From NCBI GenBank assembly GCA_963745035.1, contig CAVUVW010000013.1:960001-1024000 (forward strand): a stretch of 64,000 bases of DNA, read 5' to 3'. The position numbers and the translations under genes are program-made. Of the stretch, positions 50,623 through 59,676 are shown one piece after another (positions within the stretch are counted from its first letter, which is position 1; each line of letters opens with the position of its first letter). The notes beneath the pieces were generated by a model. It saw only the letters and a list, made by a program, of their open reading frames with translations. It was not told the origin of the DNA and did no database searches. This DNA comes from an uncultured delta proteobacterium (GTDB lineage: Bacteria > Desulfobacterota > Binatia > UBA9968).

Positions 50623-51048
50623 ATGAGTGCCGCGCCTGCGAAAATCGTCAACGTCACTTTCTACCGTGTCATCTACGGCGATACCGACCAGATGGGTGTG
50701 GTTTACTATGCGAATTATCTGCGCTGGTTCGAAAAGGGGCGGTCGGAATTTCTTCGCCAAATCGGCTTGCCGTATGCATCGATCGAACAGCAGGGCTTCA
50801 ATTTTCCTGTCGTGGAAGTGACCTGCCGCTATACGCAGTCGGCGCGCTACGATGATGTCGTGCGCATCGAAACGGAATTGGTCGAGCTGGGGCGCGCGTC
50901 GCTCTCATTTCAATATCGCATCATGCGCGATGCCGATGATTGCCTGCTCGCCAACGGATCGACCAAGCACGCGTGTCTCGACGGCGCCGGCCGGTTGAGC
51001 GGCGTCCCCAAAACCTTGCAAGCAGCGATCGCCGCAGCCGCGCGCTAG
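50623..51048 (+). CDS. YbgC/4HBT-family acyl-CoA thioesterase
   Basis: YGDTDQMGVVYYANYLRWFE.GR. Confidence 0.92.
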   Translation: MSAAPAKIVNVTFYRVIYGDTDQMGVVYYANYLRWFEKGRSEFLRQIGLPYASIEQQGFNFPVVEVTCRYTQSARYDDVVRIETELVELGRASLSFQYRIMRDADDCLLANGSTKHACLDGAGRLSGVPKTLQAAIAAAAR

Positions 51049-52200
51049 TGGGCCGCAGTCCCTTCTTTGCTCTCCGCGCGCGAGCGCATCGGCGATCTCG
51101 GCGCGCACTTCGTCGTCGCTTTCGATAACCCGGCGCTTCTCCAACGCGCGCACCGCGGGCAGGGAGCCGATCTCACCCAGAGCCCAGGCAGCGTGGCCGC
51201 GCACCAATGGCTCTTCGTCGTCGAGCAGACGAATCAATTCAGGCACGGCTTCCAAAGATTTGAGATTCCCCAGAGCGACCGCGACATTGCGCAAAAAGCC
51301 GCGCCGCTTGGCGCGCAAGATCGGACTGCCTTTAAACCGCCGGCGAAATTCATCGCGATCGAGCGACAGCAGCGGGATCAGTTGCGGCGCGTGCAAGCCG
51401 GCGCGCGGCTGGTAGGCGTTCTCGGGACTCGCTTCCGCCTTCACGTTATACGGGCAGACTTCCTGGCAGATGTCGCAGCCGAAAACATGGTTGCCGATCA
51501 ACGGGCGCAGATGGCGCGGCATCCAGCCTTTGAGCTCGATGGTCAGATAGGAAATGCAGCGGCGCGCGTCGAGCACGTAGGGCCCGACAAAGGCGCCGGT
51601 CGGACAGGCTTTGAGACACAGCTCGCAGCGACCGCAGCGATCGCCGATCGGGCGGTCGTAGTCGAGCGGCAGGTCGAGAAACAACTCGCCCAGAAAAAAC
51701 CACGAGCCTTTTTTGGGAGAGATCAGATGGGTGTTCTTGCCGATCCAGCCGAGCCCGGCCACGCCGGCGATGTCTCTTTCCAGCACCGGACCGGAATCGA
51801 CGAAAACTCTGCCTTGCACGGGCGCGCCGTGTAGCTCGTTCACTCGATCCAGCAGCGCTTCGAGTTTCTCTCGCATCACGTCGTGATAATCGTCGCCCCA
51901 CGCGTAGCGCGATATCCAACCTTGGGCGTCGTCGACCGGCTCGGGACGCGGAAATTCGGTGTAATAATTCATACCCACGGAAATGACCGAAACCGCCCAG
52001 GGCACCAGCGCCCGCGGATCGCGCCGCGTGTCTTCGCTCCGCTTCATGTACTCCAATTCGCCCGCCATGCCTTGGCGCAGCCAGCGCGAGAACGACTCCG
52101 CGTGCGGCGGCGCGCCGACCGGCGAAATGCCCACTAGAAAAAACCCGAGTTGCTGCGCTGCTTCCTTGATGCGGGCCGATAGACTGAAACGGTCGTTCAT
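50905..52200 (-). CDS. queG: Epoxyqueuosine reductase
   Basis: ISRYAWGDDYH, VDSGPVLER, GWIGKN, CGRCELC..ACP, RCISYLTIE, GCDICQEVCP; true 3' end may be near 51050. Confidence 0.93.
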   Translation of the reverse strand: MNDRFSLSARIKEAAQQLGFFLVGISPVGAPPHAESFSRWLRQGMAGELEYMKRSEDTRRDPRALVPWAVSVISVGMNYYTEFPRPEPVDDAQGWISRYAWGDDYHDVMREKLEALLDRVNELHGAPVQGRVFVDSGPVLERDIAGVAGLGWIGKNTHLISPKKGSWFFLGELFLDLPLDYDRPIGDRCGRCELCLKACPTGAFVGPYVLDARRCISYLTIELKGWMPRHLRPLIGNHVFGCDICQEVCPYNVKAEASPENAYQPRAGLHAPQLIPLLSLDRDEFRRRFKGSPILRAKRRGFLRNVAVALGNLKSLEAVPELIRLLDDEEPLVRGHAAWALGEIGSLPAVRALEKRRVIESDDEVRAEIADALARGEQRRDCGPLARGCGDRCLQGFGDAAQPAGAVETRVLGRSVGEQAIIGIAHDAILK

Positions 52201-52261
52201 GAGGAAAATCTACTTGGGGTGCGCCTGAAGCGCGGGAATAGACGAGATCTTCGCGAGCCGA

Positions 52262-52712
52262 TCAGTGGTACGAAGTTTCGTCTTCCGGGTCGGCATCGCC
52301 ATCGTCGAGCAGCGGCTTGCGCCCGGCGAAACCATCCTCGATTCCATGCCAGAAGCCGACGTTCGGTTCGCCGAGCTGCCAGCAAAGAAACACCACCTCG
52401 GCGCCGAGCATGCACGGAAAGTCGATCAGTCCCTGCTCCACGCCCTTGCACACGCAGCCGTGGGCGTTGATTTCCTCGACCCAGCTCTGTACCTGGCCGA
52501 TGAGCTTGGCGATCTCGGCATCGTCGGCGCAGATGTTCCATCAGATCGGGCGCGTCGGCGTCGAGCTGTTCCCTGCGAATCACGGTTTCGCTGGCGCTCT
52601 TCAGGCGCCGGATATTCTCCAGAATCTGTTCCACCAACGGCCGCAGCTTGGGCAGCAGCTCGTTGGCTTCATTGACCGTAAACAAGCGGGAATAGTTTCC
52701 CGTCGAATCCAT
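52262..52712 (-). CDS. DUF2203 family protein (frameshift near 52530)
   Basis: FTVNEANELLP + KGVEQGLIDFP...FLCWQLGE..FWH.IEDGFAGRKPL. Confidence 0.85.
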
Positions 52713-52752
52713 GAGTTTTATTCCACGACGTTTTCCACGCGCACGACAGCGG

Positions 52753-54048
52753 TTAGAGATTCATGCCGCTGCGAATTTGCCGGAGCAAAGCGATGTTGTC
52801 CGAGTGGCCGGTCATCGACGCGGAGATCGCGCCGCGGATCGGCCGCCCGAGCAGATAGAAATCGCCGAGAATGTCGAGAATCTTGTGGCGCGCGAATTCG
52901 TTGGGATAGCGCAAATCGGTGTTGATGATCTTGTCGTCGCCGATGATGATGCAGTTGTTGAGCTTGCCGCCGCCGGCGAGGCCCATGGTTTGGAGCTTCT
53001 CGATATCGCGGAGAAACCCGAAGGTGCGCGCCGGCGCGATCTCGTTTTTGAAAAACTCCGGCCCGCCGTACACGTAGGTATGTTCCTGCTCGCCCACCGG
53101 CTCCGGATAGCGCAGCCGATAATGAACCGACAACGATTCCGCCGGAGTGATGCTGATCGACTCGCCGTCTTTCGCCTCGATCCGGTATTGCCGGTCGATG
53201 ACGATCTCCGAAGAATCTTCGACCTGCTCCTCGACGCCGGCTTCCTCGATGGCCTGGCAGAACTCCACGGCGGAGCCGTCCATGATCGGCACCTCGCCCT
53301 GCACCTTGACGAGGAGATTGGTGATGCCGTAGCTGTGCATCACCGCGAGGAAATGCTCGACGGTGCCGATGGCAAAGCCCTTGGAGCGAAGCGAGGTCGC
53401 ATAGCCGGTGGAGCCGACATAGTCGAGATGGGCCGGCAACGTGACGTCGCCGGAGATTCCCGCGAATAGGATGCCGCGGTTGGCCGGCAGCGGGTGAAGA
53501 ATCAACCCGGTCTTCACTCCCGAGTGCAGTCCCTGCCCCGAGAGCACCACGCTTTTTTGCAGCGTCTTCTGCTTACGCGTTTGCAGCGCGTCGCCGTTTT
53601 TCAACGCGGCCGCCGACTTGGCGGCGCGCGCTTTGTGCGCGCCGGCGGCGGATTTCTGCGCGCCGCTTGCCGCCTCGCCGAGCGCGCGCTGCACCGTCAG
53701 CAGCAATCCATCCAAGGTAACCGGCTTCTCGATGAAGTCGAAGGCGCCGAACTTGGTCGCAGTGACGGCGGTGTGAATATTGCCGTGGCCGGAAACCATC
53801 ACCACGGGAATGTCCGGCTCCTGGCTCTTGATCTCTTTCAGTAAACCGATGCCGTCGACCTGGGGCATCCAGATATCGAGCAGCACCAGCTCGGGCTTCT
53901 CCTCCCGGATCATCCTGAGAACCTGAGTGCCGTCCGCAGTGTCGAGCACGCGGTAGCCCTCGTCGGTCAATACCTCGCGCACCGACTCGCGCACGCCGTC
54001 CTCGTCGTCGACGATGAGAATAGTTTTCTGGTTGGCTGACTCTTCCAC
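52753..54048 (-). CDS. lpxC: Receiver domain fused to UDP-3-O-acyl-GlcNAc deacetylase (REC-LpxC)
   Basis: REC: ILIVDD, LLDIWMP, VSGHG, FIEKP. LpxC: KQKTL..G.GLHSG, TVEH, EVPIMDGSA, EIAPARTFGF, RHKILD.LGD, GH. AGGAGG RBS before GTG 54048. Confidence 0.92.
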   Translation of the reverse strand: MEESANQKTILIVDDEDGVRESVREVLTDEGYRVLDTADGTQVLRMIREEKPELVLLDIWMPQVDGIGLLKEIKSQEPDIPVVMVSGHGNIHTAVTATKFGAFDFIEKPVTLDGLLLTVQRALGEAASGAQKSAAGAHKARAAKSAAALKNGDALQTRKQKTLQKSVVLSGQGLHSGVKTGLILHPLPANRGILFAGISGDVTLPAHLDYVGSTGYATSLRSKGFAIGTVEHFLAVMHSYGITNLLVKVQGEVPIMDGSAVEFCQAIEEAGVEEQVEDSSEIVIDRQYRIEAKDGESISITPAESLSVHYRLRYPEPVGEQEHTYVYGGPEFFKNEIAPARTFGFLRDIEKLQTMGLAGGGKLNNCIIIGDDKIINTDLRYPNEFARHKILDILGDFYLLGRPIRGAISASMTGHSDNIALLRQIRSGMNL

Positions 54049-54069
54049 TCGCCCCTCCTGCAAAACCTG

Positions 54070-56301
54070 CTAAGAATAGACCGCCCGTTTGGCGGCGTCC
54101 TCCGCCGCAGCGGTGGCGCTCACGGGAAACTCGATGATAAAGCGGGTTCCCTTCGGTTCGTTGGGCCATGCGCGGATATAGCCGCGGTGGTCTTCGACGA
54201 TTTGGCTCACGATAGTCAATCCCAAACCGGTGCCGTTCTCCTTGGTGGAGAAATACGGCTCGAAGATTTTCGTGCGGATTTCCGCCGGCAGCCCGCAGCC
54301 GTTGTCGGCGACCTCCAAAGTCACCACGCCGCGCGCCGGATCGTGGATCGTCGCCAGCCTGACTTCGCCCTCGCCTTCCACCGCCGCCACCGCATTATCG
54401 AGGAGATTGATCAGCATGCGGTTGATCTGCTCGCGGTCGAGATCCAGAGCCGGAATCACGCCGCCGCGAAAATGAAAATGAATTCCAAGATGGCCTTCCT
54501 TGAACAAAACCAGCGCCTCGCCGACGACCTGGTTGAGATCGGCCGGGGCGAGCCGGGCCGAAGGCAGGCGCGCGAATTGAGAGAACTCGTTGACGAGGTT
54601 CTTGAGCTCGACGACCTGCTGGATGATCGTGCTCGTGCACTTGTCGAGAATCGCGCCGTCGCCTTCGAGCATTTTGGCGTAGCGTTTGCGCAGCCGCTCC
54701 GCTGAAAGTTGAATCGGCGTGAGCGGATTTTTGATTTCATGCGCGATTCGGCGCGCGACTTCGCGCCATGCCTCCATGCGCTGTACCTGCTGGATCTGGG
54801 TAATGTCCTCGAGAAACAGCATCACGCCCAAAATCGAACCGTCGTCGTCGCGCAAAGTCGCCGCGTTGACCATCACCGTCAACAGACGATCGCTGAGCGA
54901 AAGGCGGATCTCGCGCTCGACGCTCTCGCGCCCCATGACGCTGTCGAGTATGGCGCGCAGCTCGGCCAGAGCTTCGGTATGAAAAACTTCCTGGTAGTTT
55001 CTTCCGACCGCGCGGTCGGCCGCGACCGCGAGGATCTTCTCCGCGGCCTTGTTCCAGGTGGTGATCTTTCCTGCCGGATCCACCGACACCACGCCCGCGG
55101 CGATGTTCGCCAGCAAGGTCTCCACCACCGTGCCGCGGCGCTCGAGCTCGAGCTTGATCTGCTTTAAATCGCCGGTCATCTGGTTGAAGGAATTCATCAG
55201 CACGCCGATTTCATCGTCGCCGCCGGCCTCGATGCGGTAGTCCCAATTGCCCTGAGCCACCTCGTGGGTGCCTTCGGCGAGCTTTTGAATCGGCACGGTA
55301 ATGCTCCGGGAAATATACATGCCGCACCAGGTCGCGGCGAAAATCACCACCAACGTGATCAGCAGCAAAGTCAGAAGATAGCTGTTTTTCACCGGCGTCT
55401 TTAAAAACGTCAGATACTTGTACTGCTCGTAGGATTGGGAAATTTCCACGGCGCGCTTGGAAATGCTCTTGGGCACGTAATAATCGACCACCACTACGCC
55501 GCGAATGCGCCGGTCCGAGCTGTAAAGCGGCACGCCGCCGCGGATCACGTCGGCGTCGCCCAGGATTTCCGTGCGCGTCACTTCGAGACCGCGCAAAGCG
55601 CGCTGCAGAAACTCTCCCTCCACTTTGACCACTCCGCCCGTCGGCACCTGCTCGTTGACCGCGACGATCAGCGGCTCGCCGTCGGGCGCGATGATTTCCA
55701 CGGTGCCGAGGTTGTACTCGCGCTGCTTCATCTGCACGAAAGCCTTGAGGTCCGCGGCGTTCTGCTTGTCGGCCAAGCCCTCGGCGGTGAGCCGCTGGCT
55801 CAATTGGCGAGCGTAGAAAATCGCGTTGTTCGCCGAATTTTGATAGTAGGTTTGGCCGATTTCCAAGGAGCCCTGCAGCGCGCTGTCGACTTTGGAATCG
55901 AACCAGCGGTCGAAGGAGCGGGTCAAAAGCCCGCCGGCGATCGTGAACAGCAGCACGCTCGGTACCAGCGACAGCGACACGAAGGCCAGCACGAGGCGCC
56001 CCTGGAGGCGCGAGCCGAGAATCCGCCGACGCCGCTCGACGATCAGCTTGATCAGATTGCGCACCACCAGAAACACCAGCAGCCCGAGCAGGATGATGTT
56101 GACGTTGATCAGGAGAAAAAAAACGATGTTGCTGGCAATGGACGATTCCGCCGAGACGTCGGGCAGCTGCACTTCGAAATAGACCAGCGCCGCGACCATC
56201 AGCGCGGTGATCAGAATGACGATCCCTTCACGCTTGCGGCGCTTGGTTTCCTCGCGCTTGAGAGTTTCCGCGCGAGAGATCGCGGGACTGGCGGCTTCCA
56301 T
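54070..56301 (-). CDS. NtrY-like sensor histidine kinase
   Basis: TM helices, periplasmic domain, [52 protein letters not shown]. Confidence 0.92.
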
Positions 56302-56592: not shown

Positions 56593-57622
56593 TTAAAATA
56601 GCGAGGGTTGCTTCTTGGCGGCGCCGCCGCTAGCCAGGGCGCTCTGTTCCCGGCCGAAATGATCGAACGCCAGGACGGTGGCGACCCGGCCGCGCGGCGT
56701 GCGTTGGACAAAGCCCGCCTGGATCAGAAACGGCTCATAGACGTCCTCGATGGTGTCTTTCTCCTCGCCGATGGCCGCCGCCAGGGTTTCGACACCCACG
56801 GGACCGCCGCCAAACTTGTCAATCAGCGTAAGCAGCAGCATGGTATCCATCTTGTCCAGCCCCAGCCGATCGACTTCGAGCATCTTGAGCGCCTCGTCGG
56901 TGATCGACTTCGTGATCATGCCGTCGCCTTTGACCTGCGCGTAGTCGCGCACCCGGCGCAGCAAGCGATTGGCGATGCGCGGCGTGCCGCGCGAGCGCGC
57001 GGCAATCTCGGCAATGCCGTCGCTCTGCTTCGCGCACGCCGAGGATCGCCGCCGAGCGCTTGAGGATGCGCGCCAGCGCCGCGGTGTCGTAGAAATCCAA
57101 ACGGTGAATATGGCCGAACCGATCGCGCAGCGGCGACGTCAACAGGCCCGAACGGGTAGTGGCGCCGATCAGCGTGAAGCGCTTCAGATCGAGCTTGATC
57201 GATCGCGCCGACGGGCCCTGACCGATCATGATGTCGATCTGATAGTCTTCCATCGCCGGATAGAGCACTTCCTCGACGATGTGATTCAGGCGATGAATTT
57301 CGTCGATGAAAAGCACGTCGCCTTGCTCGAGGTTGGTCAGCAGCGCGGCGAGATCGCCGGGCCGCTCCACCACCGGCCCCGAAGTCGCCCTGATGTTGAC
57401 GCCCATTTCCCGGGCGATGATGTAGGCGAGCGAGGTCTTGCCCAATCCCGGCGGGCCATGAAACAGCATATGATCGAGGACGTCGCCGCGCCCGCGCGCT
57501 GCCGCGATCGCCACCCGCAGATTGGCCTTGACCTGCTCCTGGCCGACGTATTCGTCGAAGCCGCGCGGCCGTAGATTGACCTCGTAGTTCAGGTCTTCGT
57601 CGTTTTTGTCAGCGCTTAGCAT
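56593..57622 (-). CDS. ruvB: Holliday junction helicase RuvB (frameshift near 57020)
   Basis: [49 protein letters not shown]. Confidence 0.95.
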
Positions 57623-57717
57623 GGTCGCAGGAGTATTACCGGCACATCATATCGACGGTGATCCGAGGCCCTATCCACGCCTAATCGTCAGCAGCCGTCC
57701 TCGATTCTTGGTGAAGC

Positions 57718-58307
57718 TCAGCTCATGCGCCGGAGCGTTTCCTTGATCACGTCCTCCAATGAGCGTTCGCCTTTCTTGAGCACCTCGCGAACCAGTTTTT
57801 CCGCCTCGGGTCTTTTATATCCCAGATTGACCAAAGCGCGAAACCGCGTCGAGCAAAAGTTGCGATCCACCGTCGGTCTTGGCGCTTTCCTGCCCGGGCG
57901 GCGCCAGAGTGGCGAACTTGTCCTTCAACTCGACGATCATCCGCTCGGCGAGTTTTCTGCCCACTCCGGGAATCGCGACCAGACGCACTTGGTCGGCTTC
58001 CTTCAACGCGCGCGCCAACTCGTCGGCCGCGATGCCGGAAAGAATGTTGATGGCGAGCTTGGGTCCGATTCCCGAGACGCCGATCAGCAGCAAGAAGAGC
58101 TGTTTTTCTTCCGGATCTTGAAAACCGAAAAGCTGAAGCGCGTCCTCGCGAACGTGGGTGTGGATTTGCAAGCTCACCGCAGCGCCGATTTCCGGCAGGC
58201 GATAAAAGACATTGAGCGGAATAAAGATCTGATAGCCGACTCCGCCAACGTCGACCACCGCCTCGCCGGGCATCTTTTGCGCTAGAGTTCCGCTGATTGG
58301 CGATCAG
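57718..58307 (-). CDS. ruvA: RuvA (frameshifts near both ends)
   Basis: DVGGVGY, HVREDALQLFGF, GIGPKLA, PGVGRKLAERMIVELKDK. Confidence 0.92.
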
Positions 58308-58925
58308 TCGCTAATCACAAGAGGCCGGCTCCAGCGCTTGGCGGCAAGCTCGACGCAGTCGCGCCAGCTCGTCCGGCCGGAGGCTCCGTTGCGCGACGGC
58401 GCCAACGTAATTTGGAAAGTCTCGCGATGAACGTGACAGATCGCCGCCGCCAGCGCATCGGCGGCGTCCGCGCGCATGGCGCCACGCACGAGGAGCAATG
58501 CGCCGACCATTTTTTGCACCTGCTCCTTGGTCGCGCGGCCGTAGCCGACCACCGCGACTTTGATTTCCGCCGCCGAATACTCGGCGATATGCAGCCGATG
58601 CTCTGCCGCCGCCAACAAAGCGACGCCGCGCGCTTGCCCGAGCTTCAGCGCGCTTTGCGCATTGCGCGAGAAGAATACCTTTTCCAAACTGACGGCAGTC
58701 GGACGACAATCTTCGATGATTTCGTGGAGCCCGCGGTAGATGTGGCTCAAGCGCTCGGCCAGCCCGAGTGCGGCGGATGTGGCGATGATTCCGTGCGAGC
58801 GGCAGCGCAGTTTGATTGGCTTCCACTTCGACGATTCCCCAGCCGGTCACAAGCGAACCGGGGTCGATGCCAAGAATGATTTCCCGACCGAGCCGCCTGG
58901 CGCTGCTCTTGAGCGTCGGCGCCAC
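58304..58925 (-). CDS. ruvC: RuvC resolvase (frameshift near 58800)
   Basis: ILGIDPG..TGWG + E.VF..N.QSALKLGQARG, K.AVVGYG.A.KEQV, DAADALAAAICH. Confidence 0.92.
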
Positions 58926-58929
58926 CGCT

Positions 58930-59676
58930 TCAGCTCGCCTTGTCCATCAGCTCGGAAGGAATGTTGAAATTGGCCGACACGCTCTGCACGTCGTCGTGGT
59001 CTTCGAGCTCTTCGGTGAGCTTGAGAATCTGCTCGACGTGCTTGGCGTCGACGTCGACGGTGTTCTTCGGCACCAAAGTCACCTGCGCGCTGGCCACCGC
59101 GATCTTTTCCTGATCCAGGCGCTCCTTCACCGCGGCGAAATCCTCCGGCAAGGTCACGACTTCGAAAATCTCGTCTTCGTCGCGCACGTCTTCGGCGCCG
59201 GCGTCGAGCACGATGCCCATCAAGCGGTCTTCATCGACCTGGACTTTTTCGACGGCGATCACGCCCTTCTTGTCGAACATCCAGGACACGCAGCCGGTCT
59301 CCCCCAGGTTGCCGCCGTGTTTGGTGAATAGCCGGCGGATCTCCGATACGGTGCGGTTTTTATTGTCGGTCAAGACCTGCGCGATGATCGCGGCGCCGCC
59401 GGGACCGTAACCTTCGTACTGGATTTCTTCGTAGGTAACCCCTTCGAGCTCGCCGGTGCCCTTCTTGATCGCCCGATCGATATTCTCGTTCGGCATGCTG
59501 TTGCTGCGCGCGGTCAACACCGCCGTGCGGAGACGCGGATTGGCATTGATATCGCCGCCGCCCATGCGCGCGGCGACGGTAATTTCCTTGATGAGCTTGG
59601 TGAAGATCTTGCCGCGCTTGGCGTCCTTGGCAGCCTTCTTGTGCTTGATCGTGCTCCACTTCGAATGACCGGACAT
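58930..59676 (-). CDS. YebC/PmpR family protein
   Basis: [29 protein letters not shown]. Confidence 0.96.

Follow-up and report, generated by a model that had tools for sequence, protein, structure and literature searches.

Can a two-component system act directly on the enzyme that commits the cell to lipid A synthesis? That enzyme is LpxC, and only for Escherichia coli and close relatives is it well understood how cells adjust its activity to the growth of the envelope. The question is raised by a 64,000-nucleotide (nt) stretch of DNA (GenBank assembly GCA_963745035.1, contig CAVUVW010000013.1, positions 960,001 to 1,024,000; the whole stretch is referred to as the window) from an uncultured soil bacterium of a class named Candidatus Binatia in NCBI titles. 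Here, the gene of an NtrY-type sensor histidine kinase is followed by a single gene that encodes a response-regulator receiver domain (REC), a linker and a complete LpxC. We propose that the two genes form a signalling module with an enzyme, not a transcription factor, as its output, in which phosphorylation would set LpxC output after translation. Based on sequence conservation and on analogy with other response regulators, we give this reading a probability of roughly 60%.

Gene layout and domains of the fusion protein

Both genes are located on the minus strand. A preliminary description of the locus, made from the sequence, gave their coordinates correctly, although the strand required correction to minus for both. 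The features are listed below (aa, amino acids).

54070..56301, minus strand: NtrY-type sensor histidine kinase gene, 743 aa
55399..55920, minus strand: predicted periplasmic sensor domain of the kinase, residues ~128-301 (AlphaFold2 and structure match)
54739..54741, minus strand: codon of H521, the predicted phospho-accepting histidine in the motif HEIKNP (motif scan)
54049..54069, minus strand: intergenic spacer with AGGAGG, 21 nt from the kinase stop TAG (54072-54070) to the likely GTG start (read from the sequence)
52753..54048, minus strand: REC-LpxC fusion gene, 431 aa from GTG 54048
53692..54021, minus strand: REC, residues 15-124 (Pfam Response_reg, E 8.8e-32)
53877-53875, minus strand: codon GAT of D63, the predicted phospho-acceptor (from the sequence)
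53584..53682, minus strand: inter-domain linker, residues 128-160 (~33), Ala/Lys/Gly-rich and predicted to be disordered
52774..53571, minus strand: LpxC domain, residues 165-430, complete from the N-terminal K-Q-K-T-L motif (Pfam, E 1.5e-81)

The mechanically defined open reading frame (ORF) of the fusion opens at TTG 54063, five codons before the GTG, giving a protein of 436 aa, and residue numbers throughout refer to this TTG-based frame. GTG 54048 is the likely start because it is preceded by AGGAGG and because the N-termini of homologues (MEE.../VEEL...) match it; with the equivalent of the GTG as their first codon, these homologues measure 429-434 aa. This agrees with the initial proposal that an ORF with its own ribosome-binding site starts about 20 nt beyond the kinase stop at 54070. 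In most related loci, the kinase ends between -8 and +53 nt from the fusion start.

The receiver matches PF00072 with 110 bits (cut-off 30.2) over 110 of 111 profile positions, and the phospho-site set consists of D19/D20, D63 (LLDIWMP), S91 (VSGHG) and K113 (FIEKP). Its best NCBIfam match is the NtrX family NF051870 (143 bits over profile positions 3-151, with the cut-off of 600 not reached), and the best solved relatives are the NtrX receiver entries 4d6x (E 1.7e-31) and 5m7n. An AlphaFold2 model of the fusion protein, computed from an alignment of 45 fusions, predicts a (beta-alpha)5 fold for this domain, with a predicted local distance difference test score (pLDDT) mostly >90. Pfam detected neither an AAA+ (Sigma54_activat) nor an HTH_8 domain in the window fusion protein, which we class as an NtrX derivative and not as a member of the NtrX family. 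The NtrX-like receiver with canonical residues and the missing AAA+ and helix-turn-helix (HTH) domains had both been pointed out in the preliminary description and are borne out here, as is its Ala/Lys linker of ~30 aa. The pLDDT falls below 50 across linker residues 133-159, and predicted disorder is limited to this region and to residues 1-9. Among 45 homologues, the linker varies in length (24-62 residues) and sequence, with the same composition. It may be a remnant of the linker between REC and AAA+ of NtrX, since the alignment to the NCBIfam NtrX model extends to residue 163.

The LpxC domain covers Pfam profile positions 1-266 of 268, scores 242.8 bits against the TIGR00325 lpxC equivalog (cut-off 187.25), and aligns in full to LpxC chains of known structure (e.g. 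6moo, E 1.4e-51). Residues E236/H237 (TVEH), H393/K394/D397 (HKILD), H420, D401, T347 and F348 all align to these chains, so that the initial view of a complete LpxC with TVEH, HKILD and GH motifs stands. We take E236, H237, H393, D397 and H420 to correspond to E78, H79, H238, D242 and H265 of E. coli LpxC, i.e. the zinc ligands and the catalytic Glu/His. By these alignments, the domain is a predicted UDP-3-O-acyl-GlcNAc deacetylase. The alignment with the solved Pseudomonas LpxC stops 6 residues short of the end of the fusion protein, and the Pseudomonas chain extends ~25 residues further; on this comparison, the fusion protein is without a long C-terminal tail of the Pseudomonas/E. coli type.

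The NtrY-type kinase

Five Pfam families, all above their cut-offs, are found in the kinase: NtrY_N (residues 27-238; 41.3 bits, cut-off 23.2), HAMP (330-380), PAS (394-500), HisKA (512-580) and HATPase_c (622-727). This is the full NtrY-type layout and, together with the motif boxes, it upholds the original NtrY assignment. A motif scan of the translation located the H-box (HEIKNP, at H521) as well as the N, G1 and G2 boxes. The H-E-x-x-N within HEIKNP is presumably the motif of a combined kinase/phosphatase.

The kinase contains four hydrophobic segments (23-47, 53-90, 99-127 and 302-332). An AlphaFold2 model of residues 1-330, based on an alignment of 33 orthologues, has a pLDDT of 78-92 across ~150-280. 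Using VIA-align, the sensor-domain model was matched to the CitA sensor 8bgb (Z 13.6, root mean square deviation 2.8, 121 aligned of 130), to the WalK extracellular domain 4ywz (Z 13.3) and to CitA 2j80 (Z 13.3). The predicted fold is PDC/single-Cache-like. Because the model matches extracytoplasmic PDC/Cache sensors, the kinase would combine a small periplasmic sensor domain with a cytoplasmic PAS domain, and the signal sensed could be periplasmic given the PDC-type sensor. The PAS domain of Brucella NtrY is reportedly haem-binding and redox-sensing. A tblastn search of the window genome found no second NtrY-type kinase, with the next match 27.5% identical over the kinase core.

A sole LpxC, conserved across the class

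The window genome comprises 7.43 Mb in 28 contigs and is 92.6% complete. Whether the fusion is the only lpxC of this genome, a point raised in the preliminary description, was addressed by profile search and by tblastn, both of which gave the fusion as the only LpxC match. The lipid A pathway is otherwise represented elsewhere in the genome by LpxA (2 matches), LpxB and LpxK. LpxB, LpxK and one LpxA sit together at G000:C21:385400-392724, and hence the fused lpxC lies apart from the other lipid A genes. Another match of the LpxA type is located at C14:142881-143123.

All of the best 120 database homologues (75-97% identity) carry both Pfam domains. In species-representative genomes, 78 loci were retained, 50 of them with the short fusion (REC-LpxC) found in the window, and the frame is intact in 47 of these 50. 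The kinase gene lies directly upstream of the short fusion in 41 of the 43 loci that have >=2300 nt of upstream sequence. A class sample of 121 genomes (19 families, 65 genera), including one unpublished genome (G282), was searched at a match threshold of E 1e-40. A fusion match was obtained in 119 genomes, as one match per genome with the exception of G302, in which it is split in two. The match extends over both domains in 114 of the 121, at 47-78% identity. Matches in G214 and G259 cover the LpxC part only; on inspection, G214 contains the same fusion gene across three reading frames, with the kinase shifted too. The search for receiver-LpxC proteins in relatives and for their linkage to ntrY, suggested at the outset, is thus positive on both counts.

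Across 45 short fusions, with identities down to 31%, D20, W65, D70, G71, S91, E112, K113 and P114 of the receiver are invariant, as are E236, H237, H393, K394, D397, D401 and H420 of LpxC; D63 and T347 are kept in >=90%. The LpxC catalytic and zinc residues are intact in 24/24 short forms, in 17/17 longer forms that have an AAA+ domain between REC and LpxC, and in 5/5 AAA+-LpxC rows, the sole departure among these 46 fused rows being a T347 to Ser change in one. For related loci, median identities are 80.4% for the receiver, 74.6% for LpxC and 72.9% for the kinase, and the receiver identity equals or exceeds that of LpxC in 38 of 42. The comparison indicates that the receiver is under strong constraint.

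Integrity of the junction

Independent support for the REC-LpxC junction matters because the assembly contains frame changes in four neighbouring genes. In comparison with the intact orthologues of the related locus L002, each of the following has a single frame change.

52197-52739, minus strand: DUF2203 gene, changed at ~52523
56593-57625, minus strand: ruvB, changed at ~57030
57721-58330, minus strand: ruvA, changed at ~57838
58334-58946, minus strand: ruvC, changed at ~58806

These look like indel errors of the assembly rather than four pseudogenes. The kinase gene, the fusion gene and queG have no frame change relative to L002.

The junction had been singled out for a check against sequencing data, and contigs of three runs from three studies were found to bridge it without insertion or deletion there. 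Contig X1 spans 52719-54180 gap-free with 5 differences, X6 spans 53394-53736 with 0 differences, and X9 spans 53362-54400 with 12 differences. The sole indels reported in the bridging contigs are at 52714 and 54072, outside the junction. RNA-library contigs (X15) cover 52749-53002, 53660-53810 and 54203-54400 with 1-2 differences each, where DNA carry-over is possible.

These data bear on the concern that the fusion is an assembly artefact, i.e. that two genes only appear joined because a stop codon was lost or an indel introduced. The frame changes in DUF2203, ruvB, ruvA and ruvC of the same assembly speak for such an error. Set against this are the contigs from three runs and three studies that cross the junction without an indel, the fusion of all of the best 120 homologues, the intact frame in 47 of 50 species-level loci and the single match over both domains in 114 of 121 class genomes. 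Furthermore, inspection of the sequence at the domain boundary revealed neither a start codon nor a ribosome-binding site. The continuous frame, the lack of initiation signals at the boundary and the class-wide fusion thus agree with the earlier judgement that a lost stop codon is unlikely. We regard an artefact as practically excluded, the bridging contigs and the class-wide fusion refuting it as far as sequence data can.

The fusion gene is directly followed on its 3' side by the DUF2203 gene (52197-52712, minus strand) and then by queG (epoxyqueuosine reductase, 50905-52200). DUF2203 is also directly 3' of the fusion in the related loci looked at (e.g. L002:7322-7801, and L044). On the 5' side of the kinase are ruvB, ruvA, ruvC and a YebC-like gene.

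Origin of the fusion

A search of 1.84 billion cluster representatives yielded 2028 proteins at E <=1e-30. The best 150 were sorted by architecture using BLAST against domain segments, with Pfam run in addition.

REC-LpxC: 47 of the best 150, full-length ones 412-505 aa, many rows being fragments
REC-AAA+-LpxC, without an HTH segment match: 14 of the best 150, 650-736 aa
REC-AAA+-HTH-LpxC: 1 of the best 150, 734 aa
AAA+-LpxC, probably N-terminally truncated: 5 of the best 150, 402-592 aa
AAA+-HTH-LpxC: 1 of the best 150, 615 aa
LpxC alone: 73 of the best 150
Multi-receiver, receiver-only or duplicated-LpxC rows: 9 of the best 150

Pfam places an HTH_8 domain in five of the long forms (P0125, P0126, P0136, P0137 and P0139). 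It also identifies P0131, with members named Candidatus Entotheonellia, as a 491-aa REC-HTH_8-LpxC protein in which AAA+ is gone and the HTH kept. By their names, members of the long-form clusters belong to Nitrospinota and to 'Deltaproteobacteria' metagenome bins, and one source names them NtrX. The Nitrospinota loci L054 and L060 each contain one REC-AAA+-LpxC frame (691 and 697 aa) that follows an NtrY-like kinase directly, and the long fusion is the only LpxC match in 2 of 3 Nitrospinota genomes checked. In the Nitrospinota genome G316, which has the long fusion, three short LpxC pieces in different frames lie within 733-aa open frames (C31:90834-91406); these extra pieces may be a second, frame-shifted long copy or strain contamination. 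Among the matches listed in an LpxC search of 201 genomes, frames of 731-746 aa occur in G035, G141 and G172, and frames of 453-473 aa in G156 and G186.

The AAA+ domain of the long forms is without the Walker B Glu and the Arg-finger motif in 17/17, with Walker A kept in 15/17. In the window genome, no NtrX orthologue was found by tblastn, and the nearest receiver paralogue is 42% identical, compared with 56% for the receiver of a Nitrospinota fusion.

An unrooted tree of the LpxC domain was computed for 109 rows from the best 150 representatives (quick IQ-TREE run, with support from the Shimodaira-Hasegawa-like approximate likelihood ratio test only). A 100% branch parts 58 unfused LpxCs from 51 other rows, made up of 24 REC-LpxC, 17 REC-AAA+-LpxC, 5 AAA+-LpxC and 5 without a detected N-terminal domain. 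The window sequence groups with P0121 (98%), and both fall within a 97% set whose members include long forms (P0127, P0123); the window clade nests with forms of 704 and 734 aa. P0136, a full long form (735-aa REC-AAA+-HTH-LpxC), has P0131 as its sister at 99%, and the starred branches of the tree require a minimum of 7 changes in the REC-LpxC label. The economical reading is that an NtrX-type regulator was fused to LpxC first, and that AAA+ and HTH then decayed and were lost more than once: the domain order of the regulator is kept, the AAA+ catalytic residues are lost, and an intermediate with the HTH only exists. The preliminary description had the output domain replaced by the enzyme itself. 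This holds in that AAA+ and HTH are gone and LpxC is the output, but a simple swap is not what the relatives suggest, as LpxC would first have been appended to a whole NtrX-type regulator.

A possible earlier stage is seen in 12 Desulfobacterales-type loci, where an unfused lpxC is found just upstream of an ntrY-like and ntrX-like pair on the same strand (L057 by inspection; L055, L058, L059, L061-L065, L067, L069 and L071 by position). How frequent this layout is cannot be judged from these loci, which were caught by patterns from either fusion domain. The order at L057:3625-8958 is lpxC, DUF4390, kinase, regulator. The L057 regulator keeps Walker A and B, with the GAFTGA motif missing. A tblastn search with the single L057 DUF4390 query, the gene preceding the kinase, found no counterpart in the window genome. 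The relatives can be arranged as a series, from a separate regulator near lpxC to a full fused regulator, an AAA+ domain without catalytic residues and finally the loss of AAA+ and HTH.

Such a starting point has precedents in the literature. According to the accessible part of Rajeev et al. 2011 (PMC3333781), lpxC is the single mapped target of the Desulfovibrio vulgaris regulator DVU2934, which is in an operon with the kinase DVU2931, and in S. fumaroxidans lpxC lies directly upstream of the orthologous operon. As described there, DVU2931/DVU2934 resembles the fusion module in directing a kinase and a receiver-bearing regulator to lpxC, and the S. fumaroxidans layout resembles that of the 12 loci above. 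However, DVU2934 is a separate DNA-binding regulator exerting transcriptional control, whereas here the receiver is joined to LpxC, with AAA+ and HTH gone. The NtrY/NtrX pairs of alphaproteobacteria (Rhodobacter sphaeroides, Caulobacter, Brucella) share the kinase layout and the NtrX-like receiver; in contrast, NtrX has a REC-AAA+-HTH architecture and binds DNA at many genes, while the fusion has the LpxC enzyme as its only output. In the portions available of Lemmer et al. 2020 (PMC7240162), R. sphaeroides lacking NtrYX displays an 8.8-fold increase in lpxC mRNA and more lipopolysaccharide (LPS), with no NtrX site reported at lpxC. That NtrYX lowers lpxC transcription and the LPS level is stated in the same portions and in those of a 2025 review (PMC7240162; PMC12444477).

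The long forms also bear on two other accounts of the fusion. In the first, phosphorylation drives dimerisation or partner binding of the receiver and so assembles LpxC or relocates it, e.g. to the membrane or to further lipid A enzymes, with intrinsic catalysis unchanged. NtrC/NtrX-type receivers commonly dimerise via the alpha4-beta5-alpha5 face, and an AAA+ domain that keeps Walker A in 15/17 long forms after losing its catalytic residues suggests assembly over ATP hydrolysis. A LapB homologue of N. meningitidis is proposed, in the excerpts of the 2025 review, to place LpxC at the inner membrane (PMC12444477). The AAA+ module has nevertheless been lost repeatedly, given the at least 7 changes of the REC-LpxC label on the tree, so that higher-order assembly is dispensable, and we consider this account very unlikely.

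In the second, the fusion would do no more than secure co-expression, draw off phosphate as a sink or sense feedback; LpxC would then be unaffected by phosphorylation, or else its substrate occupancy would alter receiver phosphorylation. Neighbouring genes with a functional link can fuse, and the fusion can go to fixation, without any gain of regulation, and in the long forms with HTH_8 (P0125, P0126, P0136, P0137 and P0139) LpxC could be a ligand-sensing module. The short form, however, has no other output domain and yet keeps all phospho-site residues, its receiver is more conserved than the enzyme, the kinase adjoins in 41/43 loci, and the window genome contains no orthologous free NtrX that could take the signal. 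With its catalytic residues intact and no other LpxC in the genome, the fusion protein would be an enzyme first, and there is little probability left for this second account.

Proposed mechanism

We propose that the NtrY-type membrane kinase, with its periplasmic PDC/Cache-like sensor and cytoplasmic PAS domain, autophosphorylates on H521 and passes the phosphoryl group to D63 of the receiver. The receiver would be tethered by the flexible linker to the only LpxC of the cell, and its phosphorylation state would set the level of LpxC activity after translation. The adjacency of the kinase gene (41/43 loci) is circumstantial evidence for this pairing. Historically, an NtrY/NtrX-type pair controlling lpxC transcription probably had its regulator fused to lpxC, followed by the loss of AAA+ catalytic residues and then by deletion of AAA+ and HTH.

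Action in cis is preferred, with one receiver state packing on, or releasing, the LpxC catalytic domain. In CheB, the receiver blocks the methylesterase until phosphorylated (autoinhibition in cis). Three points favour a CheB-like mechanism: LpxC works as a single chain, the receiver is the one part that no lineage has given up, and the AAA+ domain, with its oligomerising role, is dispensable. CheB, the REC-GGDEF proteins PleD/WspR and the REC-HD-GYP protein RpfG share with the fusion an N-terminal receiver, a linker, a catalytic C-terminus and a kinase partner. The outputs differ: those of the CheB type are signalling enzymes, whereas the fusion ends in a zinc amidase that serves an essential biosynthetic pathway. 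The AlphaFold2 model of the fusion has a mean pLDDT of 88.3 and a predicted template modelling score (pTM) of 0.82, with the larger domain making up only 63% of residues. With predicted aligned error and coordinates not visible, this pTM suggests, as a weak hint, a defined arrangement of receiver and LpxC. When receiver (10-132) and LpxC (160-436) were submitted as separate chains, the complex-prediction score was 0.01 compared with a mark of 0.32, in a run without controls; this score speaks neither for nor against docking.

[quoted passage not shown] It operates by proteolysis via a C-terminal tail that is absent from the fusion, and no phosphorylation is involved there. This comparison introduces a further alternative, in which the receiver controls LpxC stability and phosphorylation exposes or hides a degron, or recruits ClpXP, Lon or FtsH. 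The amount of LpxC would then be set by regulated degradation, as with FtsH/LapB in E. coli but with another trigger. Receivers that steer proteolysis exist, such as RssB, which is among the family matches of the receiver. Since the E. coli-type tail is missing, a different handle for proteolysis would be needed, and the disordered Ala/Lys-rich linker could be an initiation site for degradation. Proteolysis is the published mode of LpxC control in E. coli, and possibly acts through Lon in some alphaproteobacteria, in the accessible sections of the 2025 review (PMC12444477). On the other hand, we identified no degron motif or adaptor gene, the neighbours DUF2203, queG and ruvABC give no hint of a protease, and the linker sequence is not conserved. 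Control of stability is therefore judged unlikely, and direct control of LpxC activity by the fused receiver remains our preferred reading.

Several points weigh against this preference. Phospho-control of LpxC is argued from analogy and conservation, and to our knowledge LpxC is described as monomeric, with no known allosteric site. The long, variable and disordered linker would fit a loose tether as well as a docking switch. Fusions without an adjoining kinase occur in the L047 lineage, including its relative L052. Frame changes are present in 3 of the 50 short-fusion loci (L044, L049 and L052), and one stop lies within the match in 5 of the 114 class genomes with both domains (G219, G263, G266, G267 and G286); the changes in these loci and few class genomes are probably assembly errors. 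The tree cannot tell gain from loss, such that the direction of loss is argued from decay and parsimony. In addition, the window genome has one match to the Zn_ribbon_LapB profile (G000:C15:352241-352324, in a 468-aa open frame), and LapB-type control through a LapB/YciM-like protein could exist there; the profile is unspecific, matching 10 of 14 control genomes, Gram-positives included.

The L047 protein itself (L047:2379-3722) is a divergent REC-LpxC of 447 aa with ~50% identity, from a bin labelled Thermodesulfobacteriota. A radical-SAM-like gene occupies the place of the kinase upstream, and a 181-aa frame of the same genome gives a further, partial LpxC match.

Relation to described LpxC control and significance

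The preliminary description knew of no characterised example of this architecture, and our literature searches likewise found no description of a receiver-LpxC or NtrX-LpxC fusion, with the Galperin response-regulator censuses not covered. Natural fusions of LpxC to a linked partner are known in the bifunctional LpxC-FabZ/FabA proteins (NF009667), and an LpxC-FabA fusion is mentioned in the excerpt available of a preprint (bioRxiv 10.1101/2025.10.16.682753). As far as these partial sources go, the partner there is a C-terminal metabolic enzyme, in contrast to the N-terminal signalling domain of the present protein, which scores 210 bits against NF009667 (cut-off 465). The accessible text of the 2025 JBC review on lipid A names only proteolytic and transcriptional control of LpxC, treats NtrYX only as a transcriptional input, and does not contain the words 'fused', 'fusion' or 'response regulator' (PMC12444477). 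A response regulator with an enzymatic output is a known kind; neither LpxC in this role nor a regulator captured by its target seems to have been described.

A sole receiver-LpxC across the class, a kinase neighbour in 41/43 loci and conserved phospho-sites point to a third mode of LpxC control, i.e. direct phospho-control, with fusion and kinase forming a compact two-protein system. The relatives record a stepwise capture of the regulator by its target enzyme, and the envelope role that NtrYX is reported to have in alphaproteobacteria gains support from the implied NtrYX-type link to lipid A. More tentatively, it is possible, if still doubtful, that the whole class (and, with the longer form, parts of Nitrospinota and other phyla) has swapped protease-based control of LpxC for a self-contained homeostat, in which a PDC/Cache kinase would sense the state of the envelope, perhaps through LPS or through intermediates of lipid A at the inner membrane, and would turn the only LpxC on or off directly through phosphorylation of the fused receiver. 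If true, two-component phosphorylation would for the first time be seen to target a lipid A biosynthetic enzyme directly, and the module would document a path by which a transcription factor fused to the product of its own target moves from transcriptional to post-translational control.

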